This document shows, one piece after another, positions 1,168 to 54,808 of a DNA stretch of 56,011 bases. A model generated the notes under the pieces. The model was given only the letters and a program-made list of their open reading frames with translations, was not told the origin of the DNA and made no database searches. Where the stretch lies: positions 1-56,011 of IMG/VR virus record IMGVR_UViG_3300010413_000038; one strand, written 5' to 3'. A program made the translations under genes and the position numbers. The stretch is from a virus. Taxonomy: Duplodnaviria > Caudoviricetes. Every line of letters starts with the position of its first letter. Within the stretch, counting starts at the first letter, position 1.

Positions 1168-1213
1168 TAACAAAGTAATAAAATCAGTTTTAATTGATTT
1201 TTATCGCGTATTA
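1168..1213. repeat. 46-bp attC-like palindrome, copy 1 (right box degenerate, ATTA)
   Basis: TAAC-aaagt-AATAAAATCA-loop-TGATTTTTATC-gcgt-ATTA; same family as seven other copies. Confidence 0.75.
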
Positions 1214-1271
1214 TGACAAAAATCATAGCATATAATATAGTTAAAAACTATTTTTAAGAAAAAATATTATT

Positions 1272-1865
1272 ATGAATATAATTGAAAAAATAGATGCTGC
1301 AAGAAAAAAAATAAAAAGTAGCGACTTAAAAAAACAAGGTAGAAATAAACATAGTAACTATGATTATTATACCCCAGAGCAAATAAATCATTTAGTAAAT
1401 GCCGTCTGTTCAGAATTAAGAATTTTTAACAGTTATGAACTTAAGCGAAATGAAATAGGTTTATACGCTGAATTAACAGTAATTAATTTAGATGATTTAA
1501 AAGATTTTAAAACATATACATTCGCAACAGACATTCCACAAATTACAGCTACAAATGTAGCGCAACAAATAGGAGGTTGTATGACGTATTCTGAACGTTA
1601 TGCTTTAATGTTTATCTATGATATTAAGGACAATAATCTTGATTATGATGCTCAATCGCCTGTAGATAATAAGCCAGATAAAAGTCAAAAACAATCAAAT
1701 AATCAATCTAATTTTGAAACTAGAGAGGTAACTAAATCAGAGGTTGATAGTAAATGGAATGGAAAGTTATATAAAGGTAATGCAGTATATATTGATAATA
1801 TTAAAATAGTTATACCGCAAGATCAATATGAAAAGTTAAAAACTCATCCTAAATATAAACAGTAA
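1272..1865 (+). CDS. erf: Erf-family single-strand annealing protein
   Basis: GRNKHSNYDY N-terminus and QQIGGCMTYSERYALM..YDI..D..D, typical of Erf (G...TY..RY). Confidence 0.8.
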   Translation: MNIIEKIDAARKKIKSSDLKKQGRNKHSNYDYYTPEQINHLVNAVCSELRIFNSYELKRNEIGLYAELTVINLDDLKDFKTYTFATDIPQITATNVAQQIGGCMTYSERYALMFIYDIKDNNLDYDAQSPVDNKPDKSQKQSNNQSNFETREVTKSEVDSKWNGKLYKGNAVYIDNIKIVIPQDQYEKLKTHPKYKQ

Positions 1866-1940
1866 TGAAAAGAAGTAAAGATATATTTTTAGAAGTAAGA
1901 GAAAAACAGTTAACTAAAGAATCTAAAAAAGACAAATTAA

Positions 1941-2780
1941 ATGAACAACTTAGATTTAAAAATAGAGATAAGTGATTTTGATAAGAAAATAGAATCTATA
2001 ATGTCGGGGGAAAAAGCTTTAAGTTATTCAAAACTTAGTTCTTTTTTAGAAACACCTAAACATTATTATGAACATGAAACTAATGAAGAAGTTACACCGG
2101 CGATGAAAGAAGGTCAAATATTTCATTGTGTATGTTTAGAACTTGAAAATTTTAATAAAAAATACTGGATTTTAGATGATGCAAAGATATGCGAAAAAAT
2201 TGGAGGCGCAAAACCAAGAGGAACTAATGATTATAAGGAATGGAAATTAAACCAAGAACTTTTAAATAAAGGTAAGGAATTAGTATCTATTGATGATTAT
2301 AATACTTTTATTAACATGTCTGATGCTTTAAGGCGAAATAAAGCTTCTAAAATATTAATAAATAGCTTAACAGATAAGGAATTTCCTTTTGAATTTGAAT
2401 ACGATCAATTTAAAATAAAAGGAAAGATTGATGGAAAAGGCGAAATAAAAGAAGATAATTTGTTTTTTGATAAAGGTAAATACATAATAGACTTAAAAAA
2501 AGTTGCAGACGCTTCTTATAAAAAAATAAGATGGGATATAAGAGATAAAAATCTTGATTTACAGGGAGGATTATATTCGTATTCTCAAAAAATCAACAAT
2601 TATTATCTCGTTTTTATTGACAAAAAATGTAATATTACTATTGTAAATCTAATTGAAGAAACATTAAATTCCGGATTTAATAAATTTGAAAATTCTATTA
2701 AAGAATTTCAACGCTGCGCTGAGGAAAATGCATGGCAAAGTTCATATGAATTTTATAACGGAGGATTTATACGAGTGTAA
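1941..2780 (+). CDS. PD-(D/E)XK exonuclease (RecE/exonuclease VIII-like)
   Basis: LSYSKL, G..FH, KGKIDG, IIDLKK, DLQGGLY motifs; adjacent to Erf. Confidence 0.8.
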   Translation: MNNLDLKIEISDFDKKIESIMSGEKALSYSKLSSFLETPKHYYEHETNEEVTPAMKEGQIFHCVCLELENFNKKYWILDDAKICEKIGGAKPRGTNDYKEWKLNQELLNKGKELVSIDDYNTFINMSDALRRNKASKILINSLTDKEFPFEFEYDQFKIKGKIDGKGEIKEDNLFFDKGKYIIDLKKVADASYKKIRWDIRDKNLDLQGGLYSYSQKINNYYLVFIDKKCNITIVNLIEETLNSGFNKFENSIKEFQRCAEENAWQSSYEFYNGGFIRV

Positions 2781-3238
2781 TGACTAAAAAAGCGAACATA
2801 CTAATAAAGCATAACGATAGGCTAGTTCCTTTCGATAATGAAGCCAGTGTATTTGTGTCAAGGCTTGAAGAAGGTGATAAGGTTCTATGTGAGAAGTTAA
2901 AAAAAACACGTTCATCACAACAGAATAGAGCCTTACACCTATTCTTTACAATGATCGCAGAAAATCTAAACAAGGAAGGGATAACATTTGTTTATAGAGA
3001 ACTTAAAGGCCAGGAACTTGAAACTAAGTATACTGAACATTTAGTAAAAGAAATGATTTGGAGACCTATTCAGGTCACTTTATTTAATGTAGAGTCTACA
3101 ACTAAATTGACAAGTGAGATGATAAATAAAATCCTTGATGTGTTAGTTAATTTTTTCGCTAATAAAGGAATACAGATATCATTCCCTAGCCGGTTTGATT
3201 TAATGGTTAAAGAAATGGAAGAGAAAGGATATTATTAA
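2780..3238 (+). CDS. NinB-like recombination accessory protein
   Basis: RSSQQNRALH and STTKLT..E motifs typical of the NinB family. Confidence 0.6.
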   Translation: MTKKANILIKHNDRLVPFDNEASVFVSRLEEGDKVLCEKLKKTRSSQQNRALHLFFTMIAENLNKEGITFVYRELKGQELETKYTEHLVKEMIWRPIQVTLFNVESTTKLTSEMINKILDVLVNFFANKGIQISFPSRFDLMVKEMEEKGYY

Positions 3239-3416
3239 ACTAATAATTATGAATTATTTATTAAACACACTTTTGATACTTAATACATTTTTTTCTTTTG
3301 TATATATTATTGCTTCAATGCATAAAAAAAATACAAGGTATGCAGCTTACTCAATTTTTCATTTATTGCTAGTAATAATACTTATTATAACTAAGTAATA
3401 AATTAGAAAAAAATTG

Positions 3417-3424
3417 TATCTTTG
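3417..3424 (+). promoter_or_regulatory. Bacteroidota housekeeping-sigma -7 element (TATCTTTG) upstream of rha leader
   Basis: Matches TAnnTTTG; other copies at 8184, 11804, 19626, 23566, 23657, 27553, 51174, all intergenic. Confidence 0.7.
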
Positions 3425-3427
3425 TAT

Positions 3428-3504
3428 ATGTTGAGTGGAGCAACATAATAAAATATAAATGGCATGGCGAGTAGGGACTCCACCCCGAAAGCCCTGCCTT
3501 TTTT
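3428..3504 (+). ncRNA. Structured 5' leader of rha/antirepressor with two complementary hairpin loops
   Basis: ATGTTG-AGTGGAG-CAACAT hairpin; second hairpin with loop ACTCCAC, followed by a T-tract. Confidence 0.55.
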
Positions 3505-3514
3505 ATTTAATATC

Positions 3515-4144
3515 ATGGAAGAATTAGTATTTAGATCAGAAAAAGGAAATCCGGTAACAAGCAGTAAGCTTGTGGCTAAAAAATTTAAAAAAAATCATAA
3601 AGATGTATTAAAAGCTATAAGGAATTTAGTAACATCAGATGATTGGTATAAGCGTAATTTTGCGCTCATTGAATATCAACAAGTTACGCACTCTCCTATT
3701 ATAAAAGATAAAGAATATATAATGACAAGAGATGGATTCTCTATTTTAGTTTTTGGATTTACTGGGGAAAAGGCATTAAAATTTAAAATAGATTTTATTG
3801 AAGCTTTTAATAAAATGGAACAAGCTTTAAATAAAATAATTCCAGATTTTAATAATCCTGTAGAAGCAGCAAGAGCATGGGCAGATGAAGTTGAGAAAAA
3901 GCAATTAGCTGAAATAAAAGTAAAAGAATTAGAGCCAAAAGCTGAAAGTTTCGATATTTTTATAGATTCTAAATCGCTTCAAGGATTTAAAGAAGTAGCA
4001 AATATGTTAGGATATGGACGTAATAAATTAATGTCTAAACTTAGAATATTATGTATTCTTACGCATAAAAATATCCCTTACCAACGTTTTTTAAACATGA
4101 AATTATTTGAGGTTAAGGAAAGCCAAAAGGAATTGATTATATAA
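3515..4144 (+). CDS. rha: Rha-family regulator fused to antirepressor (KilAC/ANT) domain, C-terminus frameshifted; likely start ATG 3515
   Basis: TSSKLVAKKFKKNHKDVLKAI, YIMTRDGFSIL..GFTG.KA..FK..FIEAFNKME (Rha); EAARAWADE, GRNKL, NIPYQRF, FEVKE (ANT). Confidence 0.85.
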   Translation: MEELVFRSEKGNPVTSSKLVAKKFKKNHKDVLKAIRNLVTSDDWYKRNFALIEYQQVTHSPIIKDKEYIMTRDGFSILVFGFTGEKALKFKIDFIEAFNKMEQALNKIIPDFNNPVEAARAWADEVEKKQLAEIKVKELEPKAESFDIFIDSKSLQGFKEVANMLGYGRNKLMSKLRILCILTHKNIPYQRFLNMKLFEVKESQKELII

Positions 4145-4259
4145 GAAAAGCACTAACTAAAATATATTAATAAATCATAACACAATGGCAGGAAGCGTAT
4201 TTAAATCACTTAAATATCTCCGTTGAATTCGGAGCGTTATATTAAATTTTTCCAAAACC

Positions 4260-4273: not shown

Positions 4274-4337
4274 ATTAATATCATAACCTAACCCTTATCT
4301 TTACCGTATAAGAAAGTATAACTTAAAAATTAGCATT

Positions 4338-6034: not shown

Positions 6035-6526
6035 ATGGCAATAGTAATTAGATACACAGCAGACATTGAAGCAGATAAAAAAAGAAACTATACTACTTTT
6101 TCCGCAATGGGTTTTACTTCAAAAGATAAAGAAACATTTATTAATGATTTATCTGAATTAATGGAAAGCGAAATGACCGATTCATACGAATACATGACTT
6201 CTAATGAAATTGAAGAAAATATAATTGAAACTGAAAAAGGAATTACTCTTAAACAACATGACGGACTTTCATTTTGTTTGATTCCTGAAAGTATTTGCGA
6301 AGATGAAAATGGATGGAACGAACTTGAAGAAAGTAAAAAAATAGAACTAATAAACAATTACGGATATGCTTTAGGTTGCCAAGGAACTCACATTATTGTT
6401 GATGCTGATAATTTAGAAGCTAGTTTATATGAACATGAACAACATTTAGTTTTTGAAGTAAACGATTTTGAAGAAATTTATTCAGAAAGTTCAGACATGA
6501 ATATTATACTTAATAGAGCTAAATAA
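6035..6526 (+). CDS. Hypothetical acidic protein
   Basis: ORF downstream of ECF-type promoter. Confidence 0.7.
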   Translation: MAIVIRYTADIEADKKRNYTTFSAMGFTSKDKETFINDLSELMESEMTDSYEYMTSNEIEENIIETEKGITLKQHDGLSFCLIPESICEDENGWNELEESKKIELINNYGYALGCQGTHIIVDADNLEASLYEHEQHLVFEVNDFEEIYSESSDMNIILNRAK

Positions 6527-6816: not shown

Positions 6817-6946
6817 GGCTAACGGTTACGGGTATGTTGTCGTTGCGTGAATTTAGTAATAATTTAAAAAATAGAACAAATGATAAAATTTATTAGAAAC
6901 TTATTTAAAGGTAGAAAGCAGCAATGCAATATACCTGATGTTAGCG
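6817..6946. repeat. Long attC-like hairpin
   Basis: GGCTAAC-ggtta-CGGGTATGTTG..GTTGC ... GCAAT.CAATATACCTG-at-GTTAGCG. Confidence 0.7.
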
Positions 6947-7086
6947 TTTCGGTTGCTGGTACTTGTGGTACTTGCAGATTCGCTGACAGAGAAAGAGATA
7001 TGTGTGCAGCAGGAAGTTATTGGGCAGAAAAGGGGCACAATAAAGTTTGCTATGGTGGTGAGTTGTGGGAAGCAACTGAACGCTAA
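6880..7086 (+). CDS. Small Cys-rich protein starting inside the hairpin and reading into cassette 6940-7087
   Basis: CGTC..C..C motif; AT-rich initiation region; stop lies in the CGCTAAC box. Confidence 0.65.
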   Translation: MIKFIRNLFKGRKQQCNIPDVSVSVAGTCGTCRFADRERDMCAAGSYWAEKGHNKVCYGGELWEATER

Positions 7087-7129
7087 CGTAGAAATAAAAT
7101 GCGTTTTAATGCATTTTAATCGAATGTTA
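7084..7129. repeat. 46-bp attC-like palindrome, copy 2
   Basis: TAAC-gtaga-AATAAAATGC-gttttaat-GCATTTTAATC-gaat-GTTA. Confidence 0.8.
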
Positions 7130-7173
7130 TCGTAACATTTTTAATCATCCTGCGTATAATCAAATAAAAAGAC

Positions 7174-7742: not shown

Positions 7743-7788
7743 CAACGAAGAGATAAAATCAGTTTTAATTGATTTTTATTGATTGTTA
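7743..7788. repeat. 46-bp attC-like palindrome, copy 3
   Basis: CAAC-gaaga-GATAAAATCA-loop-TGATTTTTATT-gatt-GTTA. Confidence 0.8.
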
Positions 7789-7914
7789 TGATTTTTATCA
7801 TTGTTTTATAATAAAAAAATAACTATTTTTAGTACTAAATAATTAATATTATGATTTATATATATATTATATCATTTCTAATATTAGTACTTTTAATACT
7901 AAATGCGCCAATAA

Positions 7915-8292: not shown

Positions 8293-8394
8293 ATTTTAAA
8301 AAGTTTAAAAACATGACAAATATCATATAATAATTGTAACCTTATTTATATCTTTACGTATAAGAAAGTAATTAATAACTAAAAACAAAAAGTC

Positions 8395-8583
8395 ATGAAA
8401 GAAATTAGAGTTATAAGATATTCGAATGAATCAGGTTCAAGAGAGGGTGTTTATTTTACTGAAGATTTTGAAGTGTTAAATAGCGAAATTATACCTTATT
8501 GTTGTACGGTTAATTCAGATTTAATAATCGAAGTATCTGATTTTGATTTAAGTTTTCCATTGGATTATAATCTTGAAAGATAA
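8395..8583 (+). CDS. Hypothetical protein
   Basis: ORF after ECF-type promoter 8336. Confidence 0.65.
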   Translation: MKEIRVIRYSNESGSREGVYFTEDFEVLNSEIIPYCCTVNSDLIIEVSDFDLSFPLDYNLER

Positions 8584-8670: not shown

Positions 8671-9123
8671 ATGAAAGCAGAAAAAATTAGAATAGGAAAC
8701 TTTGTAAATCTTAAAAATTGGCAAGATGAAATAAGCTTTTTTGGGGAGTTCGATATTTCACAAAATGAATTGGATAAATTAGTAAAAACAGGTGATGGAA
8801 ATGCTAAAGTATTATCTATTACAAGTGAAGAAGTAGAGCTATTGGCATATGGTTGTGATTTATATTATTATAGTTACGCTGAAATATTGCCGATAAAAAT
8901 TACTGAAAAATGGCTTATTGATTTAGGGTTTAATAAATTCCCAGGAAGTGGACAATTATTCGACACTGATGATTTTTGGGCTGGAAGATTAATAAACGAT
9001 GGCTTTTTTGAGATTTCGCACTTAGAATTAACATTGAAATATGTTCATGATTTACAGAATGTATTTTTTGCGCTTACAGGTAGAGAACTTGAATTGAAAA
9101 ACGAATGTAGTACTTGTGCCTAA
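8671..9123 (+). CDS. Hypothetical phage protein
   Basis: RIGNFV..PIKITEKWLIDLGF..LKYVHDLQNVFFALTGREL pattern; ends in GCCTAAC followed by half of a 46-bp element. Confidence 0.75.
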   Translation: MKAEKIRIGNFVNLKNWQDEISFFGEFDISQNELDKLVKTGDGNAKVLSITSEEVELLAYGCDLYYYSYAEILPIKITEKWLIDLGFNKFPGSGQLFDTDDFWAGRLINDGFFEISHLELTLKYVHDLQNVFFALTGRELELKNECSTCA

Positions 9124-9150
9124 CAAAGCGATAAAATAAACTTTAATTAT

Positions 9151-9564
9151 ATGGATAACGAAGAAATATTAAAAAAAATAGCTCCTTATTTGCCTTATGG
9201 TTTACAATGTTACGGAGCTTCAGATGTCTGGACAATACATTCTATGGGAATAGAAAATATATCATTCTTTAATGGAATTATTTTACAAGAATGTTCATTT
9301 GATTATTTTTTTACAGATTATTCTCTATTATTTCGTCCCCTATCCGATCTAACGAAAGAGATTGAGGTTGATGGAAATAAAATAACACATTCATTTAATC
9401 TTTTTAACGTAAAAAATGACATAAAATGTGTTTATTTTATTAATACTATTAAAGATAAAACTATGTGTTTTTATCAAGCGGAGAGACTTTTAGAATGGCA
9501 TTTTGATATTTTCGGACTTATTGAAAAAGGGCTTGCAATTGACATTAATACTTTAAAACAATGA
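9151..9564 (+). CDS. Hypothetical phage protein
   Basis: APYLPYGL..LFRPLSDLTKEI..WHFDIFGLIEKGLAIDINTL pattern. Confidence 0.75.
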   Translation: MDNEEILKKIAPYLPYGLQCYGASDVWTIHSMGIENISFFNGIILQECSFDYFFTDYSLLFRPLSDLTKEIEVDGNKITHSFNLFNVKNDIKCVYFINTIKDKTMCFYQAERLLEWHFDIFGLIEKGLAIDINTLKQ

Positions 9565-15095: not shown

Positions 15096-15299
15096 ATGGA
15101 AAAAATGACTCAAAAACAACAGATACTTGAAGCATTACAAGAAGGATTTCATTTAAGCAAATTACAGATGCTTCAGAGATTTAAAGTATGGAATTCCGGG
15201 CATGTAATATTTAAGCTTCGAAAAGAAGGACATGATATAAAAACAACGATGGTTAGAAATGAATTATCAGGGAAGTATTTTGCAACTTATCATTTTTAA
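15096..15299 (+). CDS. Small winged-HTH protein
   Basis: TQKQQILEALQEG..IFKLRKEGHDIKT..ATY pattern. Confidence 0.65.
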   Translation: MEKMTQKQQILEALQEGFHLSKLQMLQRFKVWNSGHVIFKLRKEGHDIKTTMVRNELSGKYFATYHF

Positions 15300-15337
15300 T
15301 GGTAAAATGCGTTTTAATGCATTTTAATCGATTGTTA
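15297..15337. repeat. Truncated copy of the 46-bp attC-like palindrome
   Basis: TAAAATGC-gttttaat-GCATTTTAATC-gatt-GTTA with left box eroded. Confidence 0.7.
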
Positions 15338-18452: not shown

Positions 18453-18498
18453 TAACGCAGAGATAAAATGCGTTTCAATGCATTTTAATAGACTGTTA
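18453..18498. repeat. 46-bp attC-like palindrome, copy 4
   Basis: TAAC-gcaga-GATAAAATGC-gtttcaat-GCATTTTAATA-gact-GTTA. Confidence 0.8.
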
Positions 18499-18816
18499 TG
18501 ATTTTTATCATTGTTTATAACAAACTATATATTTAAATTTAAATATAATATATGAATATGAGTGAATTAGATAAAGCACAAAAGAAAATAGATGAAGCTC
18601 AAAAAAAGCTTAAAGAAGCTAAAGAAAAGAGAGAAATATCAAAAATAAGATATGATACTCATGTAATAATAATGGAAGGTCAAAGAAGAACACTTGCAGA
18701 TTTATAGAGAATGAATCAAGAATTAATGAATGAATTAATGAAATCTAATAATGTAGTTAGTGAATCACAAATTAATCTTCAAGAATCAATTAGTAATTTA
18801 CATAATTTAGAAACAG

Positions 18817-19552: not shown

Positions 19553-19598
19553 TAACGCAGAGATAAAATGCGTTTCAATGCATTTTAATCGATTGTTA
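19553..19598. repeat. 46-bp attC-like palindrome, copy 5
   Basis: TAAC-gcaga-GATAAAATGC-gtttcaat-GCATTTTAATC-gatt-GTTA. Confidence 0.8.
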
Positions 19599-19788: not shown

Positions 19789-20268
19789 ATGTCTAATGCT
19801 GAATATCAAAATATGATTTTAGCTTATTACAAAGATTTAGAACATTTTGCTGCTCATCTAACAAACAATAGAGATGACGCTAAAGATTTAACACAACAAA
19901 CTTACTTAAAAGCACTTCAATTCAAAAATAAATATAAAGAACATAAATGCATTAAAATTTGGCTTTCAGTTATAATGAAAAACATATTTATTGATCAAAA
20001 AAGGAAAGAGAAAAACATTAAATATGATTATGATTTAGATGATTTAATTATTTCGGAGCCTGAAAATATAACATCAAAACTAACATTAGATGAAATATGG
20101 GTTTATTTAAACAAAAAATATAAAGAAAAAATGATAATGCCTCTAATTTTAAACGCAAAAGGTATTAAACACGAGGAAATATCTAAAAAGTATAATATAA
20201 ACATAAATACAATTAAAAGCAGGGTAAAAAGGGTAAGAGAAGTCTTAAGAAAAAGATATAATCTATGA
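19789..20268 (+). CDS. ECF-type sigma-70 factor
   Basis: Region 2 DAKDLTQQTYLKA..WL..IMKNIFID; region 4 GIKHEEIS...NININTIKSRV.R.R..L. Confidence 0.88.
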   Translation: MSNAEYQNMILAYYKDLEHFAAHLTNNRDDAKDLTQQTYLKALQFKNKYKEHKCIKIWLSVIMKNIFIDQKRKEKNIKYDYDLDDLIISEPENITSKLTLDEIWVYLNKKYKEKMIMPLILNAKGIKHEEISKKYNININTIKSRVKRVREVLRKRYNL

Positions 20269-23229: not shown

Positions 23230-23275
23230 TAACAAAGTAATAAAATACGTTTTAATGTATTTTTATTACATGTTA
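23230..23275. repeat. 46-bp attC-like palindrome, copy 6
   Basis: TAAC-aaa-GTAATAAAATAC-gttttaat-GTATTTTTATTAC-at-GTTA. Confidence 0.8.
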
Positions 23276-24065: not shown

Positions 24066-24659
24066 ATGGATGAATTAAAAAAATATACTTTAAAAGAATT
24101 AAAAGAAAAACTAACAGTTAAAGAAAAAAAATTTTGTCATCAATATATTATTGACTGGAATGGAGCGAGGGCTGCAAGAGAAGCAGGTTATAGTGAAAAA
24201 ACAGCAAGAGAAATAGCACATTATAACTTATCAAAACTTCACATACAGCAATATATAGATTATATTAAGGATGATTTTGAAAAAGAATCAGGTATAAGTA
24301 AATTAAGACAACTAAACGAACTAATTAAAATAGCTTATTCAAGTGTTTCTAATTTACATGAAACATGGATTGAGTTAAAAGAATTCGAATCTTTAACAGA
24401 AGAGCAAAAATCATGTATTGAATCAATTGAAACAAAAACAGAGAAAAGATTAGAATATAATATTGAATCTAAAGAAAGAGATAAGGAAATTGAAATAAAA
24501 TATGTAAAATTAAAACTACATTCAAAAATACAAGCAATAGATCAAATTAATAAGATGATGGGATATAATGCGCCTAATGTATTAGAATTAACAGATAAAC
24601 GAAAAGATATATCTGAATTATTCCCAACTGATGATGAATTAAATGAAACGGAAGATTAA
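24066..24659 (+). CDS. terS: Terminase small subunit
   Basis: LTVKEKKFCHQYIIDWNGARAAREAGYSEKTA; KLHSKIQAIDQI.KMMG. Confidence 0.92.
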   Translation: MDELKKYTLKELKEKLTVKEKKFCHQYIIDWNGARAAREAGYSEKTAREIAHYNLSKLHIQQYIDYIKDDFEKESGISKLRQLNELIKIAYSSVSNLHETWIELKEFESLTEEQKSCIESIETKTEKRLEYNIESKERDKEIEIKYVKLKLHSKIQAIDQINKMMGYNAPNVLELTDKRKDISELFPTDDELNETED

Positions 24660-25059
24660 TCCAAATCTGAAATATCTTTATTCATGCCTGAAAAATCAAA
24701 AGTATGATGAAAATGAAGAATTAATATCAGGTAAAAGAGGAGTTATTTTAGAAGGTTCTAGTCGATGCTTTAGTGAGAATCAAAAAATATTAACTGATAA
24801 AGGAGTTAAAAGAATATATGATATAACCACTCAGGATAATGTAATAACATATAATGAAAATAAACGAGTAAATGAAATAAAGCGAGTTATAGCTAAATTA
24901 GTATTTAAAAATTCAAAAAAATGTTATAGGATAAAATTAAAAAATAATGAATTTATAGAAGTCACTGATGATCATGAATTTTATTATAATGGTAAATGGG
25001 TAAGTATTTCTAATATAATATATATTTGGAATGAAAGGAATAAAAAAAGAGAAAAATAA
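24643..25059 (+). CDS. terL: Terminase large subunit N-extein (41 aa) fused to split intein N-fragment (97 aa, from Cys42 at 24766)
   Basis: ILEGSSR|CFSENQKILT (intein block A); EVTDDHEFY (block B TxxH). Confidence 0.9.
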   Translation: MKRKINPNLKYLYSCLKNQKYDENEELISGKRGVILEGSSRCFSENQKILTDKGVKRIYDITTQDNVITYNENKRVNEIKRVIAKLVFKNSKKCYRIKLKNNEFIEVTDDHEFYYNGKWVSISNIIYIWNERNKKREK

Positions 25060-25699
25060 ATTTATTGCTCGTATATCAATAAATGGTAAAAGAATTCAAA
25101 ATAGTTTTGATGATATAGAATCAGCTAATAGTTGGTTGTGTTCAATACGGTTAAATAATAAATTAAAATCATTGCCTAATGAGGTATGGAAAATTATTCC
25201 TAATTTTAATAGATATATGGCATCTAATTTAGGTCGTATAAAATCATTAAATTATAAAAATTCTGGAATTGAAAAATTAATTAATCCATCTAAATCAACA
25301 GATGGATATTTAAAGACAATGTTAAAGAATAACGATAATAAATATTGTTCATGGGAGGTTCATAAATTTGTAATGAGATCATTTTATGGTAATTATAATG
25401 GATTAGAGGTTAATCATAAAGATGGTAATAAATTAAATAATCAGTTAACTAATTTAGAAATATGTACTAAATCTGAAAATGCTATACATGCGATAAATAA
25501 TGGATTATGGGAAATAAAAGTTGGAGAAAAAAATGGTATGGCTAAATTAACAAAAGAACAAGTAATTCAAGCTAGAGAAGCTAAAAAAAATAATGGTCGA
25601 TTTTGGGGAAGAAAAGAAATTGCAAAAAGTTTTAATATATCTGAAAAACATTTACAAAAAATAGTTAATAATCCAGATAAATTATGGTACAATGCTTAG
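25031..25699 (+). CDS. Free-standing NUMOD4-HNH homing endonuclease
   Basis: EVWKIIP..YMASNLGRIKS (NUMOD4); VHKFV..F, VNHKDGNKLNN..NLE.CT..EN..HA (HNH); GEKNGMAKLT. Confidence 0.92.
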   Translation: MKGIKKEKNKFIARISINGKRIQNSFDDIESANSWLCSIRLNNKLKSLPNEVWKIIPNFNRYMASNLGRIKSLNYKNSGIEKLINPSKSTDGYLKTMLKNNDNKYCSWEVHKFVMRSFYGNYNGLEVNHKDGNKLNNQLTNLEICTKSENAIHAINNGLWEIKVGEKNGMAKLTKEQVIQAREAKKNNGRFWGRKEIAKSFNISEKHLQKIVNNPDKLWYNA

Positions 25700-27027
25700 A
25701 TATAAATCAAATAGAAAGTATAGAAGAAATTGAATTAGATTATGTTTATGATATAACCATAAAGGATAATCATAATTATTATATTAATGAATTAAATCCT
25801 ATATTAGTACATAACTCAGGTAAAACATGGAGCTCAGTAGATTTAATAATATTAATATGTACAAGAATAGAAACCAATTGCGTTATAAACATAATAAAAG
25901 AAACCTACCAAAGCTTTAAAACAACATTATATAATGATTTTAATGAAAGGCTTCCTATGTTTGGTATTCCTTCACCGTTTGAACATGCAAAAGAATTGCA
26001 TAGCTTTAAAATATTCGGTAATAAAATAAATCTTATTGGAGCTGATAAAATAAGCAAGTTCGAGGGTATGGGATGCGATTATCTATATATTAACGAGATG
26101 TTGCCTATTGATAAAAAAGTGTTTGACCATGCAGAAATGAGATGTAAAAAGTTTTGGTGGGCTGATTATAACCCAAGTGTTACTGAACATTATATATTCA
26201 ATAATATTATTCCTAGAAAAGACGTAGGATTTATTCGTACAACATTTAATCATAATCCTTTTATATCAATACAAGAAAAAAAGAAGATACTTAGTTATGA
26301 GCCTTGGGAATCAGGAAGTTATATTGTAACAGAAGATTCAATATATTATAATGATAAGTTAGTAGATGAAAAAAACTATCCACCTCCACATAAAGAAAAT
26401 ATAGAAAATGGAACAGCCGATGAGTTTATGTGGAAAGTTTATGGATTAGGATTACGAGGAGCAATGAGAGGAGTTATATTTAATAATGTAACTTGGATAG
26501 ATGAATTTCCTGATATACATTTTGATTATGGATTAGACTTTGGATTTATAGCAGATCCAACAGTTATTACAAAATGTGCTGAAGATTATAATAATATATG
26601 GATTGAATATTTATCTTACGCTCCTATGGAAACACCGGATCAAATTTTTGAATATGGGAAATCAATAGGAATGAATTATAGATTACCAATAACAGCAGAT
26701 TCAAGTGATAAATATACAGGAGAAAATAAGGGAACTGTTGAGATGGTTAAGAGTTTACGAAAAATGGGATGGAATATAACTAAAGTAAGCAAAACGAAAA
26801 ATGTTATGTATTGGATAACATCTATGAAACAAAAAAAGATTCATATAGTAAAAAATGAATTCTATAAAGAAGCTAAAAGAGAACAGGAAAATTATAAATT
26901 AAGAGAAATTAATGGAATATCAATTAATCAGCCAATAGATGACTTTAATCATGGTTGGGATTCAGCGAGATATAGACATATGGCATTTAATTCTAAACGA
27001 CAAGGTATTATATTAAATAATGATTAA
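25684..27027 (+). CDS. terL: Split intein C-fragment (44 aa, to 25815) fused to terminase large subunit C-extein (PBSX-like)
   Basis: VYDITIKDNHNYY..ILVHN|SGKT; YINE, DYNP, GLDFGF..DPT, ADS, NHGWDSARY. Confidence 0.92.
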   Translation: MVQCLDINQIESIEEIELDYVYDITIKDNHNYYINELNPILVHNSGKTWSSVDLIILICTRIETNCVINIIKETYQSFKTTLYNDFNERLPMFGIPSPFEHAKELHSFKIFGNKINLIGADKISKFEGMGCDYLYINEMLPIDKKVFDHAEMRCKKFWWADYNPSVTEHYIFNNIIPRKDVGFIRTTFNHNPFISIQEKKKILSYEPWESGSYIVTEDSIYYNDKLVDEKNYPPPHKENIENGTADEFMWKVYGLGLRGAMRGVIFNNVTWIDEFPDIHFDYGLDFGFIADPTVITKCAEDYNNIWIEYLSYAPMETPDQIFEYGKSIGMNYRLPITADSSDKYTGENKGTVEMVKSLRKMGWNITKVSKTKNVMYWITSMKQKKIHIVKNEFYKEAKREQENYKLREINGISINQPIDDFNHGWDSARYRHMAFNSKRQGIILNND

Positions 27028-29490: not shown

Positions 29491-30324
29491 ATGATTAGTC
29501 AAGTAGATTTACAAACAATATCGACAGTGTTCGGAAAGACATCTGACGAAATAAGCAGTGCTATTTCTCAGGAAGGAGAAGTATTGCTTGGCTTAAAATT
29601 ACCTGGAAAGATTTATACACAAGATGAAATCGAAGGATTAAAAACAGCTATTAGGGGAGCAGGTGTAGAAATAGGATTGAAACAGATAAGTAAACAATTT
29701 GGTATTGATTTAAATGGAGAAGATAAAACACCTGAATTTGTAGCTAATAAAATTAAATCAATAGTTTCAAATGAATTCGAGGAAAAATATAAAAATCAAA
29801 CTCCTGATGAAAAACTTATTGAACTTCAAAAAAAGATTGAAGAACAACAAAAAAGTTATGATAAGCTAAAAGGAACATATGATTCAACTATTACGCAAGT
29901 TGATGAATGGAAAAACAAATATTCTGAACTTGAAAATAATTATGAGAGTAAAGAAATTAACAATAAAATATTGAGTTATTTACCAGAAAAGCTTAAAATA
30001 GAAAAGGAAGATGCATTAAATCTGATAAGATTAGGAATTCAGGTTGAAAAAACTGATAATGGTATTATTTATAAAAAAAATGGTCAAATTATTACTGATG
30101 CAGTTGGAAAACCAGAAACACTTGAAAATGTAGTTAAATCATTTGTTGAAGAAAAAAAATGGATTAGAGGATCTGGAATGAATGGTAAAGACACAGAAAT
30201 AGGGATTAATGGATTGCCTAAAGGACTAACTGAATCAGATGCTTATAAATGGCTTGAAGATAGAAATATAGAGCCCATGAGTGAGGAAGGTACAGAGAAA
30301 TTTTTACAACTTACTAGTAAATAA
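29491..30324 (+). CDS. Capsid scaffolding protein
   Basis: Charged coiled coil directly before the major capsid gene. Confidence 0.65.
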   Translation: MISQVDLQTISTVFGKTSDEISSAISQEGEVLLGLKLPGKIYTQDEIEGLKTAIRGAGVEIGLKQISKQFGIDLNGEDKTPEFVANKIKSIVSNEFEEKYKNQTPDEKLIELQKKIEEQQKSYDKLKGTYDSTITQVDEWKNKYSELENNYESKEINNKILSYLPEKLKIEKEDALNLIRLGIQVEKTDNGIIYKKNGQIITDAVGKPETLENVVKSFVEEKKWIRGSGMNGKDTEIGINGLPKGLTESDAYKWLEDRNIEPMSEEGTEKFLQLTSK

Positions 30325-30403: not shown

Positions 30404-31465
30404 ATGGCAAATTTTTCACCGAGTAATTTAGTAAAAGGACAAGCGTTGTTCAATCAGCGTTATAAGTCTTTAGAATGGAGATTGCCTGACACCGCCGCCT
30501 TATCTGTGGCTTATATTGGTGAAAAGGCAAATCCTATGCTTGCAGAATTACGCAAGCGAGAAGATCGATCAGTATCAGCTTATTTTCCTATTAGAAAAAC
30601 AAAGGCTGCTTCATCTGCAAGGGTGCATAATCACACTGGAACTAGAGGAGATTCTTTAGAGGTGGCAATTAATTGGAGTACTGTTGTTGATACGTTTTCA
30701 ATATCAATAAAACAAAACGATAATAATGTTATTTCATGGGAAGAAAACTATGCTGCTCAGATGCAGAATTCTGTATTTAATGTATTATCTGCATTAGATA
30801 CTAGTTTTATAACATTATTAGAAGCTGATAGAACTCAGATAAACGTAGGAGGAGTAAATGGGACATTTGATGGTACAGATTATGTAATGGAAATTTCTGC
30901 ATCACATAAAGATTATTTCTTTCAGAATCTAATGGCTAATATGAGACAAAATCTTTATAAAGGCCAGTTAACTGTTATTGTTGACTCATTATCAGGAATT
31001 GAAGCAGCCAGACAAGCAAATCAAGGTATTGGAAATGCTACCAATTTAGGCTATCAATTCCTAAACATGAATATTGTTCAGTCTACAAACGCAATTCTTG
31101 ACGGATTAACTGACACTTATGATGGAGCAGCTTTAGCATTTCCAATGGATTCAGCAGGAGTTGTATTCTGGATACCAAAACAAAATCGTAAAGCTTTAGA
31201 CCCTGTACAAGCTCTTAGTTATAATGGTGATTTTGGTTCTATTAATGTTCCTATATATGATGATAAAGGAAATGTACGGTACAATGTACCTTTAGCTATT
31301 CATTCGTATGCAGAAAGAGCAGATGCTTCAGCCTCAAACGGTTCGGCACAGGATGTTGTAATTCAAATTGAAGTATCGCTAGATATGGCTTATGTATCAG
31401 CTCCTCTATCAACATTCAGAGGAAGTAATGATTCAGTAGTTTATGGATTTGGACAATTAAGCTAA
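30404..31465 (+). CDS. Major capsid protein
   Basis: 353 aa, MAN start, position after portal and scaffold, strong A-rich initiation region. Confidence 0.75.
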   Translation: MANFSPSNLVKGQALFNQRYKSLEWRLPDTAALSVAYIGEKANPMLAELRKREDRSVSAYFPIRKTKAASSARVHNHTGTRGDSLEVAINWSTVVDTFSISIKQNDNNVISWEENYAAQMQNSVFNVLSALDTSFITLLEADRTQINVGGVNGTFDGTDYVMEISASHKDYFFQNLMANMRQNLYKGQLTVIVDSLSGIEAARQANQGIGNATNLGYQFLNMNIVQSTNAILDGLTDTYDGAALAFPMDSAGVVFWIPKQNRKALDPVQALSYNGDFGSINVPIYDDKGNVRYNVPLAIHSYAERADASASNGSAQDVVIQIEVSLDMAYVSAPLSTFRGSNDSVVYGFGQLS

Positions 31466-50380: not shown

Positions 50381-50414
50381 ATTATAACAGCGATAATTTC
50401 CCAAAATTAAATAG

Positions 50415-50442
50415 GCCGGATAATAAAAATCCGGCTTTTTTT
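50415..50442 (+). terminator. Late-operon terminator
   Basis: GCCGGAT-aataaaa-ATCCGGC plus T-tract. Confidence 0.85.
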
Positions 50443-50507
50443 ATTTATTTTTTGTAACCTTTTAAAAAAAATATCGTAAAAGAAAATATAACTAAAAACA
50501 AAAAGTC

Positions 50508-50690
50508 ATGAAACGTTTAGAAGAACTTGCAGAAGAAAGAAGAAAAAGACAGATTGAAAGATTTGAATCTATTGAAAAAGGAATTGAAAATCATAATACA
50601 ATGTTAGATTATTATGAAAAGACATGCCGTTTATTCGATATGACAGGACGCGGATTATCAAAAAATACTGGTAATTTAGAATTGTTTTAG
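50508..50690 (+). CDS. Hypothetical protein
   Basis: ORF after ECF-type promoter 50454. Confidence 0.6.
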   Translation: MKRLEELAEERRKRQIERFESIEKGIENHNTMLDYYEKTCRLFDMTGRGLSKNTGNLELF

Positions 50691-51347: not shown

Positions 51348-51486
51348 CGATAAGTGGGTTACTTCGCTATGGGAGCCGTGTGTCACTGGTTCGATTCCAG
51401 TATCCCTGCCAAATTAAAACAACATGCAGGGATTAGCTCAGTTGGTAGAGCAACGATACAGATTCCTACTTAAATTTTCTCTGCTT
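51339..51486 (+). ncRNA. yrlA: Y RNA (YrlA-like) 1
   Basis: 5'/3' closing stem with bulge and GCGA; T-arm ACTGG-TTCGATT-CCAGT, closed acceptor stem ATCCCTGC/GCAGGGAT, D-arm TAGCTCAGTTGGTAGAGC in permuted order; next to Ro60. Confidence 0.85.
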
Positions 51487-51496
51487 TTTAAAAATA

Positions 51497-51567
51497 TTGC
51501 AAGTGGCGATGAATGAGTTACTTCGTTTCGGATATGAAAAAATACTTATTCAATTTTTCCCTTGCAA
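51497..51567 (+). ncRNA. Minimal Y RNA-like 2 (Ro-binding stem only)
   Basis: TTGCAAG-T-GG-CGA-TGAATGAGT-TACTTCG ... ACTTATTCA-ATTTTT-CC-CTTGCAA; covaries with copies 1 and 3. Confidence 0.75.
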
Positions 51568-51572
51568 AGATA

Positions 51573-51710
51573 TTAGTGGTAGCGAAATGTGAGTTACTTC
51601 GAATGCTAATCGAGAGGTCGCAGGTTCGATTCCTGTCAAAATGGTGTATTCCGTTTTGTAGCTCAGTTGGTTAGAGCGCTAAAATTTCTCACGTTGATTT
51701 TCTCCACTAA
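51573..51710 (+). ncRNA. yrlA: Y RNA (YrlA-like) 3
   Basis: TTAGTGG/CCACTAA and AATGTGAG/CTCACGTT stems; T-arm GCAGG-TTCGATT-CCTGT; acceptor hairpin; D-arm TAGCTCAGTTGGTTAGAGC. Confidence 0.85.
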
Positions 51711-51719: not shown

Positions 51720-51759
51720 AAGGGTTACATAGCTATTTTATTGTGTAACCCTTTTTTTT
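51720..51759 (+). terminator. Terminator between Y RNAs and Ro60 gene
   Basis: AGGGTTACATA...TGTGTAACCCT plus long T-tract. Confidence 0.75.
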
Positions 51760-51787
51760 TGTTGAACTAATTTTAAATTTAATAGAT

Positions 51788-53218
51788 ATGTCAAGATTTA
51801 ACACTACTTCGGAAGGTACTAAAACCGTAAATTTAGCAGGTGGACAAGCATATAAACAAACACCTGAATTAGAATTGGTTTCAATATTGCTTACTTCGTT
51901 TGCAAATGACCAGTTTTATCGTTCATCTTCCGACACATTTGACACTTTAACGCAATTGATTTTAATGTGCGATAAAAAGTTTGTTGCGAAAGCTGCCATT
52001 TATGCAAGGACTAAATTTGGAATGCGTTCTATTTCTCACGTAGTTGCTTCCGAATTGGCAAAACATATTGGAGGTAATAAGTGGGCAAAAGATTTCTATG
52101 AATCTATTGTTTACAGACCTGACGATATGATGGAAATTTTATCGTATCATACATTAAAGAACGGTAAAATTCCAAATGCAATTAAGAAAGGTTTTGCTAA
52201 AGCATTTGATAAATTCGACCGTTATCAATTGGCTAAATATAGAGGTGAAGGGAAAGGATATAAATTGATTGATATTGTTAATTTAGTTCATCCAGTTCCG
52301 GTTGAAAAGAATGTAGATGCCATAAATGCACTTGTTAAAGGAGAATTGAAATCGTTCTATACTTGGGAATCTGAGTTAACACGTGCCGGGCAAAATGCGA
52401 CTTCTGAGGAAGAAAAGGCAGACTTTAAAAAAGATGTTTGGATTAAACTTGTAGGGGAACGTAAACTTGGATATTTTGCACTTTTGCGAAATCTTAGAAA
52501 CATTATTGAACAAGCACCTGAAGTTTTGGCCGAATCGCTTGAAATGCTTACGAATGAATCAATGATAAAAAAATCTTTGGTTTTACCGTTTCGATTTATT
52601 ACTGCTTTCGATGAAATTCAAAAGTTGAATAACGGTAAAATTGTTCGTGAAACATTGATTGCTTTGAATAAGGCTGTTGACATTTCAATTTCCAACGTTC
52701 CAAAGTTTGATGGTGAAACACTGGTTGTTTTGGACGTTTCCGGCTCTATGTCTGGAAAACCTGCTGTAATTGGCTCTCTGTTTTCTGCTGTTTTGGTAAA
52801 ATCAAACAACGCTGATTTTATGACATTTTCAGACAGGGCGCAATATCGAAACGTAAATCCAATGGATTCTACAATAACAATTGCAAATTCATTGCGCTTT
52901 TCGATGGGAGGAACCAATTTTCAAGACATTTTCAGGGTTGCAAACAAAAAGTATGACCGTGTAGTAATACTTTCAGATATGCAGGGATGGATAGGTTATT
53001 ACTCACCTGTTGCTGAATATAACAACTGGAAACGAGTTACCGGAGCAAATCCTTTTGTTTATTCGTTCGACCTTAATTCATACGGAAACATGCAATTTCC
53101 TGAACAGAATGTATTTTGTTTAGCTGGATTTTCTGACAAGGTTTTCGATATTATGAAACTTTTGGAACAAGATAAGAACGCATTAGTGAACGAGATTCGC
53201 AAAGTTTCTTTTTCCTAA
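51788..53218 (+). CDS. rsr: Ro60/Rsr RNA-binding protein (TROVE plus vWA domains)
   Basis: NLAGGQAY, FYRS, FDRYQLAKY, TWE, ALLRNLRN, LPFRF; vWA DVSGSM, GGT, LSDMQ. Confidence 0.95.
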   Translation: MSRFNTTSEGTKTVNLAGGQAYKQTPELELVSILLTSFANDQFYRSSSDTFDTLTQLILMCDKKFVAKAAIYARTKFGMRSISHVVASELAKHIGGNKWAKDFYESIVYRPDDMMEILSYHTLKNGKIPNAIKKGFAKAFDKFDRYQLAKYRGEGKGYKLIDIVNLVHPVPVEKNVDAINALVKGELKSFYTWESELTRAGQNATSEEEKADFKKDVWIKLVGERKLGYFALLRNLRNIIEQAPEVLAESLEMLTNESMIKKSLVLPFRFITAFDEIQKLNNGKIVRETLIALNKAVDISISNVPKFDGETLVVLDVSGSMSGKPAVIGSLFSAVLVKSNNADFMTFSDRAQYRNVNPMDSTITIANSLRFSMGGTNFQDIFRVANKKYDRVVILSDMQGWIGYYSPVAEYNNWKRVTGANPFVYSFDLNSYGNMQFPEQNVFCLAGFSDKVFDIMKLLEQDKNALVNEIRKVSFS

Positions 53219-53308
53219 TGGTTTTGAAAAAACCAATGTGCGGTGGGGCTTTTTTTATTTCTTCGCATACTTCTGTCGTTGATTAAATGAGCCGCCACCG
53301 CTTGTTGG

Positions 53309-53354
53309 TAACGAAGAGATAAAATGCGTTTCAATGCATTTTAATCGAATGTTA
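53309..53354. repeat. 46-bp attC-like palindrome, copy 7
   Basis: TAAC-gaaga-GATAAAATGC-gtttcaat-GCATTTTAATC-gaat-GTTA. Confidence 0.8.
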
Positions 53355-53408
53355 ACGTAACCTTTTAAATAATTTACCGTATAATCAGTATAACTAAAAA
53401 CAAAAGTC

Positions 53409-53627
53409 ATGTACGGTTCTATGCCAATATCGAAATACAGAATAGCCAGATATTTATTTCTTAGTGAATATACAAATTATGAAATTCCTGAGAAATTCAT
53501 AAATTTAGCAGTTAATGATTTGATGAAAAAACCGGATAGATTCTTGGTTAAGAAATTTAGGCGTAGGCATTATATAAATTTACGAGTTTTTGCGCCTGGA
53601 TTATTCCAAATAATTTACGATTTATAA
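53409..53627 (+). CDS. Hypothetical protein
   Basis: ORF after ECF-type promoter 53357. Confidence 0.6.
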   Translation: MYGSMPISKYRIARYLFLSEYTNYEIPEKFINLAVNDLMKKPDRFLVKKFRRRHYINLRVFAPGLFQIIYDL

Positions 53628-53799
53628 ACTAAAACTATGAAAAATAAGGTATATTATAATAAAGAAGAGGTTATATTAACCGGGAGAACTAACAAATTTC
53701 TATTTGAAGTTAAATTTCAAACAGGAGAAACTAGATTCATACACGTAGATGATTTAGATTTTATTTCTGATATAAGAGATAAGAATCACTTCTTTTAAT

Positions 53800-53902
53800 T
53801 AACGGATTGTGGTATGAAATCGAAACCGACACAACCACAGCCTAAACAATGAGAATAAGCAACCAGATATTTTGTTTTATGCCACTTGTTACCAACTGGC
53901 GG
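53800..53902. repeat. Long attC-like hairpin plus cassette start (near-duplicate of 50972-51074)
   Basis: TAAC-ggatt-GTGGTATGAAA ... TTTTATGCCAC-tt-GTTACCAACTGGCGG. Confidence 0.75.
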
Positions 53903-53955
53903 TTATAACGAACCTCGATTAAATGAACAGAAGTAATAATTAAATATTTAAACAG

Positions 53956-54126
53956 ATGAAAAAGATTTATAAAACTAAAGGATTACCATATTATGTGAAG
54001 AATTGTAATAATATTTTTGATGCGGTGGCAGAACTGCTTAAAAATAGAATAGGTGTAACAGAAAACGACTTGGAGGAAGTAAAAACAGACCTTATTCAGA
54101 TGGGTGCAAAAATATTTTGTGCATAA
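53956..54126 (+). CDS. Small cassette gene (56 aa, absent from ORF track) in cassette 53888-54198
   Basis: MKKIYKTKGLPYYV...KIFCA; leader and trailer homologous to those of the RNA ligase gene. Confidence 0.6.
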   Translation: MKKIYKTKGLPYYVKNCNNIFDAVAELLKNRIGVTENDLEEVKTDLIQMGAKIFCA

Positions 54127-54194
54127 CCATATTTAATTATGGACAAGTTACCACATAAGTCTGTTAAATGTACTGCCTTTCTTCCGCTTGTTGC

Positions 54195-54317
54195 TAACGG
54201 TTTAGCTATGAATAGTAGCGGATTAATAGCACAAATTTATCAAAATGAGATACAGTAAATTAATATTATAAACCTATCGAGTAGCACTAATACCACTATT
54301 ATTTATAGCTGTTGTTA
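54195..54317. repeat. Long attC-like hairpin
   Basis: TAAC-ggttt-AGCTATGAATAGTAG ... CTATTATTTATAGCT-gtt-GTTA. Confidence 0.75.
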
Positions 54318-54343
54318 TGCGCTGCAGATGCTAATTAAAAGAT

Positions 54344-54754
54344 ATGAGTTTAAGAAAATTAATACCAATGACCGATTTTGTAAATCAAATTTTAGCTTAT
54401 ACGAAAGAAAGCAATAATTACCAAAGAGGTATACAACTAATTGATTGGTATGCTGAATTAATACAGCAACCTATAAGTATGGAAATGTTTAAAGGCGATA
54501 ACCCTTTATTTCCGAATTTTAAAATTGTAGAATCTCAAAAAGAAGCCACAGAAAACAACTATAAAAATGCTATTTGGTATTTTGGCAATGGCGAATTTGC
54601 CACTACGCTTTATCGAAAATCAGAACACAGCACAACAAAGTCAGGAATGTGTTTTATTACCAGTTTTCATTTAAGTACAATTGAACAACTTTGTGATAAA
54701 GATATTGATTTTAGTATGTTATCTGAATATGCAGAGAGTGACATATTTGATTAG
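54344..54754 (+). CDS. Hypothetical protein in cassette 54314-54766
   Basis: KLIPMTDFV..YA.LI.QP...MF; cassette ends GTTATGCGC / GCGCATAAC. Confidence 0.75.
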   Translation: MSLRKLIPMTDFVNQILAYTKESNNYQRGIQLIDWYAELIQQPISMEMFKGDNPLFPNFKIVESQKEATENNYKNAIWYFGNGEFATTLYRKSEHSTTKSGMCFITSFHLSTIEQLCDKDIDFSMLSEYAESDIFD

Positions 54755-54762
54755 GTTGCGCA

Positions 54763-54808
54763 TAACAAAGAGATAAAATCTGTTTTTATGGATTTTCATC
54801 GATTGTTA
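54763..54808. repeat. 46-bp attC-like palindrome, copy 8
   Basis: TAAC-aaaga-GATAAAATC..GATTTT-C-ATC-gatt-GTTA. Confidence 0.8.

Follow-up and report, generated by a model that had tools for sequence, protein, structure and literature searches.

The 56,011-bp virus record IMGVR_UViG_3300010413_000038 (Duplodnaviria; Caudoviricetes), analysed here over its full length and referred to below as the window, is the complete genome, with direct terminal repeats, of a Flavobacterium-type phage and carries repeated copies of a 46-nt palindromic element. On balance, we favour the view that these elements are attC-type single-strand recombination sites without a phage recombinase, similar to the attC site clusters that have no integron integrase (CALINs), in a layout that is reversed relative to bacterial cassettes. 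The structure of the element, its strand bias, its homology to sites in bacterial cassette rows beside a recombinase gene and the switching of its flanks in relatives are all observed, and from these we infer the action of a recombinase on the phage copies, the crossover point and the mobile unit. The analogy with integrons had been drawn before, in a sequence-only reading of the same DNA, and is still the best-supported one; what falls is the role given there to the copies as phage-owned, attI-equivalent docking sites, as they are homologous to attC-like sites inside bacterial cassette rows and no phage tyrosine recombinase was found in the window.

The set comprises eight full copies, one copy without its left arm and one left half, all on the + strand (scores in bits where given):

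1168–1213, + strand: full copy with right box ATTA, not GTTA (68.7 bits); preceded by the RNA ligase gene and a structured spacer of ~100 nt, and followed by TGACAAAAATCA
7084–7129, + strand: full copy (74.7 bits); the TAA of its TAAC is the stop codon of open reading frame (ORF) 6880–7086
7743–7788, + strand: full copy, CAAC...GTTA (75.8 bits), followed by a TGATTTTTATCA palindrome
9121–9147, + strand: only the left half, with 17 nt and the remnant of a loop, no fold; its TAA is the stop codon of ORF 8671–9123
15292–15337, + strand: copy without left arm (58.7 bits), positions 12–46 intact (15303–15337)
18453–18498, + strand: full copy (76.3 bits), followed by TGATTTTTATCA
19553–19598, + strand: full copy (80.1 bits), upstream of a unit that opens with a sigma factor gene
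23230–23275, + strand: full copy with an extended lower stem (66.4 bits), the last of the sites ahead of the packaging and structural genes
53309–53354, + strand: full copy (77.8 bits), after the TROVE/VWA gene and a ~100-nt structured spacer
54763–54808, + strand: full copy with loop GTTTTTAT and one U.G stem pair (72 bits)

The eight full copies and the left-truncated one align without gaps over 62 columns. All eight have the length of 46 nt and run from (T/C)AAC to GTTA as the sequence-only reading had described them, with the exception of copy 1168, so that the AAC box is present in 8/8 and the GTT box in 7/8 (ATT in copy 1168). The two eroded copies reported at 9121 and 15297 are both seen, the latter truly spanning 15292–15337, with its positions 1–11 replaced by the end of ORF 15096–15299; at the former, the ATG of gene 9151–9564 sits at the expected place of the right arm. 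A degenerate core pattern matched nine times on the forward strand and never on the reverse, its reversed-pattern control matching neither. With filters off, a covariance model recovered the same nine sites on the + strand (E 1.5e-16 to 3.1e-11). The matches ranking next fell on the complementary strands at these sites (E 0.03 and 0.21), and E was 0.5 or more for all others.

The predicted fold consists of an outer 5-bp stem (positions 1–5 with 42–46) in which (T/C)AAC(G/A) pairs with TGTT(A/G), a 4/3-nt internal loop, a 12-bp inner stem and a 4-nt terminal loop. A single base in the right (3′) arm, at position 35, is left unpaired, being A in five copies, T in three and C in one, in agreement with the sequence-only reading. 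Canonical attC sites likewise have their extrahelical bases on the 3′ arm of the bottom strand. Pairing is retained in 94.1% of 153 cells, compared to 89.2 ± 1.3% in shuffles (0/500 reach the observed value) and 31–46% when partners are slid, and two inner stem pairs show two-sided changes (GC/CG/AU and CG/AU/UG), which bears out the covariation claimed earlier. One G.U pair is invariant in 9/9 copies, and this G.U/G.T pair forms on the + strand only. As RNA, the eight full copies with flanks have folding energies of −7.8 to −16.4 kcal/mol and z-scores as low as −4.6. The observation is confirmed at all ten places, and the copies other than half-site 9121 share one hairpin with covariation. 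No Rfam family was found at the elements, either at gathering score or at E ≤ 1.

These features are shared with attC sites. The attC/CALIN sites of virulent phages are described as imperfect palindromes closed by AAC...GTT, forming a folded single strand with an internal loop and extrahelical base, several of them lying within 4 kb with no integrase (PMC9892861), all of which is also true of the element. The attC fold is listed as having a central spacer that is unpaired, one or more extrahelical bases and a loop at its end (PMC8946536), and each of these has its covariation-supported counterpart here. The definition of a CALIN asks for at least two sites within ~3–4 kb and no integron integrase nearby (PMC9024848, PMC9892861); the window contains three site clusters (7084/7743/9121, 18453/19553/23230 and 53309/54763, the last joined by copy 1168 if the terminal repeats represent a circular join, at 2.4 kb), and a PF00589 search for tyrosine recombinases gave no match in the phage genome at E ≤ 0.1.

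The closest precedent was provided by Qi et al. (2023), who reported CALINs in virulent phages, including one with two methyltransferase genes in Polaribacter phage P12002L, and recombination of one of its sites, P12002L_attC2, with IntI1 (PMC9892861). Two members of the present family are found in P12002L, on the coding strand at 30004–30060 and 30905–30959 (48 and 50 bits), in the gaps around a methyltransferase gene. They are diverged copies with a common left flank ATTGTTGC-TAACG, a GTTTTAAT loop and TTGTTA, and we infer that they are the attC1 and attC2 of Qi et al. In a literature search on integrons and attC in phages and Bacteroidota this was the only report found on a phage of Flavobacteriia, and no paper was found containing short sequence strings of the element. 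Integrons are described as rare in Bacteroidetes in the IntegronFinder 2.0 paper (PMC9024848).

Relatives of the element were collected by a core-hairpin pattern search, which returned 94 metagenome and 41 genome stretches in which core conservation is by construction; the covariance model, run on 80 of the 94 metagenome loci and all 41 genome loci, matched at 51 (E ≤ 0.01) and 26 of these, respectively. The 11 best genome matches (at least 38 bits) are all in records titled as Bacteroidota taxa. Two free stem positions, on which the pattern imposed nothing, complement each other in nearly all model matches, where many different dinucleotides occur, the NAAC(G) and TGTTN′ boxes recur at the same spacing though outside the search pattern, and position 1 covaries with position 46 (UA, CG, GC). 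In an alignment of 22 phage, P12002L and bacterial sequences, 91.6% of cells pair, seven pairs show double changes and 0/500 shuffles reach the covariation score. A third hairpin group beginning with ATAAAATTTG (e.g. L139 and L150) was set aside as lacking the AAC/GTT boxes, and several matches inside a conserved coding gene (e.g. L196 and L207) were set aside as non-family.

The phage-like contigs (L111, L121, L145, L154, L168, L176, L202) resemble the window in carrying the element mostly on the coding strand, and in L154 two copies lie 667 bp apart. Phage-type contigs have a second, shorter hairpin right after the element, with the same GTTTTAAT loop on another stem (L154 1734–1760 and 2401–2427; L145 ~2370–2395; L202). 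On Bacteroidota chromosomes and metagenome-assembled genomes (MAGs), the element occupies short gaps between co-directional genes and lies on the opposite strand. Taking the G.T strand as reference in 35 contexts, both flanking ORFs are antisense in 15 and one is antisense in 16, three have no ORF call, one is mixed and none is sense-only. This orientation is shared with the attC site, which sits at the 3′ end of a promoterless cassette ORF and whose bottom strand is antisense to it. The stop codon of the upstream gene often falls within the bacterial element. The flanking genes are varied, many encoding signal-peptide-like N-termini, and in one region DUF6090 paralogues and an alpha/beta hydrolase flank the element.

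A link to integron biology comes from two contigs, L219 and L167, in which homologues of the phage element part co-directional genes beside a recombinase gene. The L219 row consists, all in one direction, of the recombinase gene, a gene, a 111-nt TAAC...GTTG palindrome, a gene, the element, a gene, a further palindrome and a gene, and that of L167 of recombinase fragments, a gene, the element and a gene, so that the element is the site of the second (L219) or first (L167) gene after the recombinase. Recombinases of this type score 215–230 bits on NF040815, ‘site-specific tyrosine recombinase/integron integrase’ (cut-off 220), and 194–214 bits on TIGR02249 (cut-off 265), the latter in two stretches with model positions ~180–240 unmatched, which we take to be the place of the IntI-specific domain. 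The likely enzyme is XerA-like and differs from integron integrases in this respect. In two complete genomes, recombinases 49–53% identical to that of L219 adjoin rows of small co-directional ORFs parted by AAC...GTT palindromes, and one MAG has four hairpins within 8 kb, all opposite to the genes, comprising the element and variants with other stems and the same boxes and loop. No publication was found on Bacteroidota cassette rows beside an XerA/IntI-like recombinase. Directly after the recombinase gene, L219 has a short perfect hairpin, TAACAGGA-ATAC-TCCTGTTA (6060–6095), and L167 a 10-bp AT-rich hairpin followed by TTGTTG (783–835); both are candidates for the array's primary insertion site.

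These rows resemble the sedentary chromosomal integrons and group IIC-attC introns treated by Leon et al. (2010; PMC3001079), in that genes of one direction have the element between them, on the bottom strand, in rows that adjoin a recombinase. They differ in that the recombinase gene is co-oriented with the cassettes, several site types are mixed in a row and most genomes checked have 1–3 copies of this type. The likeness extends to an intron: L105 contains a group II intron (RF02001, 84 bits; also RF01998 and RF00029) on the G.T strand of its element, starting 5 nt past the inner stem, before the right GTT arm, and antisense to the adjacent gene, in keeping with the insertion of group IIC-attC introns into the attC bottom strand, opposite to the cassette genes (PMC3001079). 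The L105 intron is ORF-less, a further difference. The same GTGTGTGCC start, 5 nt past the hairpin, recurs in L101 and L171; L171 runs off its contig, and L101 has no Rfam match at E ≤ 0.001.

Among the relatives, flank switching was seen: a single right flank occurs with six different left flanks, and divergence begins at position 1 of NAAC, meaning that position 1 travels with the left flank, and four phage-type copies have the element and everything rightward in common, each with a different left flank. The first gene after the element in L145 (2493–3095) encodes a protein whose C-terminal 50 aa are 44% identical to that of window gene 9151–9564, which starts inside half-site 9121, hinting that a site and the gene downstream of it may travel together. 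The sequence-only reading had placed the crossover at the AAC end, for which the switching at the AAC edge speaks, and against which there are also switches to the right of the core. Its proposal that the left flank reproduces the start of the upstream cassette did not hold, complementarity with the previous copy's right flank being 3.25/8 compared to 3.2/8 for unrelated flanks and 3.9/8 for the copy's own. Contig joints at or near copies 1168 and 7084 in the probable source sample, with sides of 21–37 nt, were taken as artefacts of repeats or other organisms and not used.

To the right of the copies, the flanks mostly belong to two types, as had been noted: TGA(T/C)... after copies 1168, 7743, 18453 and 19553, and (A/T)CGTAAC after copies 7084, 53309 and 54763. 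Copies 23230 and 15292 show neither type and no recognisable promoter. The promoters and related features of this part of the analysis are as follows:

7132–7160, + strand: class B promoter GTAACA-N16-CGTATAAT, 3 nt after copy 7084
7801–7803 (TTG) and 7824–7831 (TATTTTTA), + strand: putative host-type promoter after copy 7743, by the Bacteroidetes consensus
18511–18513 (TTG) and 18534–18541 (TAAATTTA), + strand: putative host-type promoter after copy 18453, by the same consensus
53357–53385, + strand: class B promoter after copy 53309
54811–54839, + strand: class B promoter after copy 54763
4284, 5989, 7132, 8336, 15685, 50454, 53357 and 54811, + strand only: promoter family GTAAC(N15-16)CGTA(T/A)A, before genes
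50413–50447, + strand: canonical terminator with G+C-rich hairpin and T-run, directly before the element-less class B promoter at 50454
19789–20268, + strand: small phage sigma factor, 159 aa (phrog_1740, E 4.9e-23; Sigma70_r2, 39.1 bits; r4_2 under cut-off)

The class B promoters beside copies 7084, 53309 and 54763 read GTAAC(A/C)-N16-CGTAT and lie 16–27 nt before a start codon. Over the window, GTAAC and CGTA separated by 15–18 nt occur eight times on the + strand and not on the −, seven times intergenic before genes and once intragenic, with a variant at 4284; the element adjoins three of these promoters. Promoters for extracytoplasmic function (ECF) sigma factors have AAC at −35 and CGT at −10. 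The class B promoters resemble these, the 159-aa sigma factor is a candidate for their reader, and the two together look like an ECF-type middle-gene regulon. The element itself was considered as an ECF-type promoter (AAC-N-CGT) and rejected on reading the sequence, as the spacing does not fit. After copies 7743 and 18453, the order is TGATTTTTATCA, TTG, 20 nt and TAnnTTTA, putatively a host-type Bacteroidetes promoter. Scans of the window for sigma-70-type promoters and terminators gave no enrichment over shuffles.

Two further sequence repeats were seen in these regions. Three small genes (62, 60 and 72 aa), each with a class B promoter upstream, have a near-identical leader, ATAACTAAAAACAAAA(A)GTCATG, in front of them (8372–8397, 50485–50510 and 53386–53411). 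The two spacers of ~100 nt that lead up to copies 1168 and 53309 (1071–1167 and 53219–53308) are homologous and fold at −28 and −33 kcal/mol; in each, the stop codon is followed at once by a small hairpin, next by a long G+C-rich stem around GATTAAATG and finally by the end CCGCTTGTTG(C/G). They have no Rfam match and are possibly structured RNA.

Under the attC-type interpretation, the + strand would fold into a hairpin with outer box, internal loop, inner stem with an extrahelical 3′-arm base and small loop, and would be bound by a host XerA/integron-integrase-like tyrosine recombinase, of the type encoded beside the Bacteroidota cassette rows, with strand exchange at the conserved AAC. Crossover in attC sites takes place at AA|C. 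If the + strand serves as bottom strand and is cut at AA|C, the mobile unit would begin with the C of one site and end with the AA of the following one, every unit having a hairpin, promoter and genes of its own; the TAA codons that act as stops at 7084 and 9121 would be left with the unit upstream. The layout would therefore be the reverse of a bacterial cassette: the site comes first, then its own promoter, then the genes that travel with it, and as genes would bring their own promoter behind the site, most copies would be expected to abut a promoter. The statement that the copies close each cassette array is loose in this regard, since the units hold up to about ten genes, the DNA polymerase gene among them. 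The + strand of the phage is strongly purine-rich, and if this reflects the direction of replication, the foldable strand would be the lagging-strand template, which is reported to favour attC folding (PMC8946536). A fuller picture, which we put forward tentatively and hold to be possible rather than probable, is that the early and accessory part of this virulent phage consists of reversed, promoter-carrying cassettes bounded by attC-type hairpins and cut and pasted by a host XerA-type integron recombinase, drawing on a gene pool common with Bacteroidota arrays, with the foldable strand placed where replication exposes it and fast turnover as a result.

A number of observations weigh against the elements being attC-type sites. 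On the side of function, no recombination event has been seen on any phage copy, a tyrosine recombinase was found neither in the window nor in P12002L, and the link to the site tested by Qi et al. runs through our own matching of the P12002L members to attC1 and attC2. On the side of form, attC sites are 57–141 bp long with the R-box consensus RYYYAAC / GTTRRRY, whereas the element has 46 nt and keeps the consensus at AAC/GTT only, the 7-mers being, for example, TGCTAAC and CGCTAAC on the left and GTTATGA and GTTAACG on the right. Its loop (GTTTYAAT) is conserved, unlike that of canonical attC, and folding energies as single-stranded DNA are weak (−3.3 to −7.6 kcal/mol) and near equal on both strands. 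The foldable G.T strand, in contrast to an attC cassette, is the coding strand in all copies of the window and P12002L and in most of those in other phage-type contigs, the site precedes its genes, and the units are multi-gene and include essential genes. In the window, 7/9 copies directly precede a promoter, which also fits a role in transcription, and the second shorter hairpin of the phage-type contigs is left unexplained. Among the bacteria, five genomes searched gave only 1–3 element matches each at E ≤ 1, and the element is remote from the integron-integrase-like match on two complete chromosomes and on other contigs in three MAGs. Lastly, flanks also switch to the right of the core (L111 compared to L145, L140 to L126), left-arm differences sometimes reach position 9 (L097 compared to L156 and L174), and the phage copies are mosaic among themselves in the alignment; for the two-sided switches, homologous exchange in the 27-nt core accounts equally well, and an AA|C crossover alone does not.

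Several of these points are accommodated by the main rival, to which we give an appreciable but clearly smaller probability, namely that the hairpin is an RNA-level boundary element within a stem-loop plus promoter cassette like the promoter early stem-loops (PeSLs) of T4, ending or stabilising the upstream message as a weak terminator, 3′ protection or processing site, with its ~46-bp repeat allowing the phage's Erf-like, exonuclease, NinB and NinG proteins to shuffle modules by homologous recombination. All nine copies are in sense orientation at the ends of gene groups, most directly upstream of a promoter, the G.U pairs and folding energies suit an RNA fold, the phage does encode these four proteins, and both the two-sided flank switching and the mosaic copies are what such shuffling would give. 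PeSLs are described as composite terminator/promoter motifs mediating modular exchange, and the T4-like case (Comeau 2014, PMC4122927) shares with ours a repeated stem-loop upstream of a promoter, punctuating small variable early-gene blocks as a plausible substrate for homologous exchange. The stem-loop with promoter is found here in 7/9 copies, the terminator character is not, and the promoter part falls into two unrelated classes while the hairpin is constant. PeSLs, as composite terminator/early-promoter motifs of T4-like phages, were reportedly also treated by Arbiol (2010).

Like Rho-independent terminators, the element forms a hairpin where gene groups have their 3′ end, and the sequence downstream is moderately U-rich; unlike them, it has an AT-rich stem, conserved flanking boxes and, as the sequence-only reading had noted, no T-run, and the terminator scan flagged no copy. 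Canonical terminators are present at 50413 and at 51720, and as the phage thus has ordinary terminators, the AT-rich elements are not its standard ones. Four of the seven intergenic class B promoters, and the 4284 variant, have no element. The AAC/GTT boxes and the loop are conserved across phage and bacteria, which would be unexpected for a terminator. A further point against an RNA boundary is that the bacterial homologues, which part cassette rows opposite to the genes, are antisense to flanking genes in 31/35 contexts and sense-only in none, so that the family is unlikely to act as RNA on that strand. The patchy distribution of the element is counted for the attC-type reading: the family is absent from 80 loci around related DNA polymerases (at most 51% aa identity; both models, default filters), and phage FCV-1 has a single weak candidate only. 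The core pattern has four single matches in IMG/VR, core hairpin only and without arms, and blastn of one element against GenBank phages gave chance matches only. The two explanations are not mutually exclusive, and attC sites themselves are thought to act as weak terminators, according to a statement in Qi et al. (PMC9892861).

A double-stranded DNA binding site, i.e. an upstream activator or operator through which a phage or host regulator acts on the adjacent promoter, is improbable. The near-palindromic element does lie at about −40 to −85 from the inferred starts of seven promoters, with a second small palindrome (TGATTTTTATCA or GTTA-N3-TAAC) between the two, but compensatory stem changes and G.T pairs, which would be mismatched in the other strand, point to a single strand that folds and not to a duplex read by a protein, a palindromic operator needs no strict strand polarity, two copies are not followed by a promoter, five promoters of one and the same class lack the element, and the bacterial copies fill short gaps between co-directional genes. 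Least probable of all is a selfish or relic repeat without present phage function, be it related to miniature inverted-repeat transposable elements or a decayed recombination site: two of ten copies are truncated (9121 and 15292), copy 1168 lacks the G of GTT and there is no recombinase, but in a genome of 29% G+C eight copies have neither changed in length nor lost their pairing, with compensatory changes, and all are intergenic and on one strand.

The genome in which the elements reside has a G+C content of 28.8% and 107 ORFs of at least 60 aa, 86 of them on the + strand, to which the gene set used here is entirely confined; start codons follow A-rich sequence and for the most part have no Shine-Dalgarno motif. 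No close relative was found, a 15-kb query having no megablast match among the GenBank phages. The DNA polymerase shares 47% identity with the enzyme of Flavobacterium columnare phages, and the portal and other proteins are distant kin of those of P12002L. Besides the recombination genes, the phage encodes a replication initiator, a primase-helicase, a terminase, an endolysin, a TROVE/VWA protein and an RNA ligase. Two matches to YrlA (Y RNA-like) at 51377–51456 and 51596–51703 (E 0.0013 and 1.8e-5, both under gathering score) lie just upstream of the TROVE/Ro60-like and VWA gene at 51788–53218, the small ORFs at 51354–51674 probably being these RNA genes, and the RNA ligase gene (132–1070) is ~3 kb from the TROVE/VWA gene if the terminal repeats represent a circular join; judged by sequence, this looks like a phage Ro/Y-RNA/RNA-repair module. 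Within 24643–27027, an HNH endonuclease gene (25031–25699) overlaps a 138-aa and a 447-aa ORF at its two ends, the latter matching large-terminase families in its C-terminal half only.

In summary, it seems somewhat more likely than not that the elements are attC/CALIN-type sites, a kind already known in phages, of which the reversed, promoter-carrying 46-nt form would be new. The system lends itself to direct testing, since the site is short and well delimited, a family of candidate recombinases is at hand and an assay format has been published (Qi et al. 2023). If the sites are active, Bacteroidota would have a cassette system that the standard attC and IntI models largely miss, and integron-style exchange would help to explain the gain and loss of small early genes in the virulent phages of marine and freshwater Bacteroidota, alongside homologous and illegitimate recombination.

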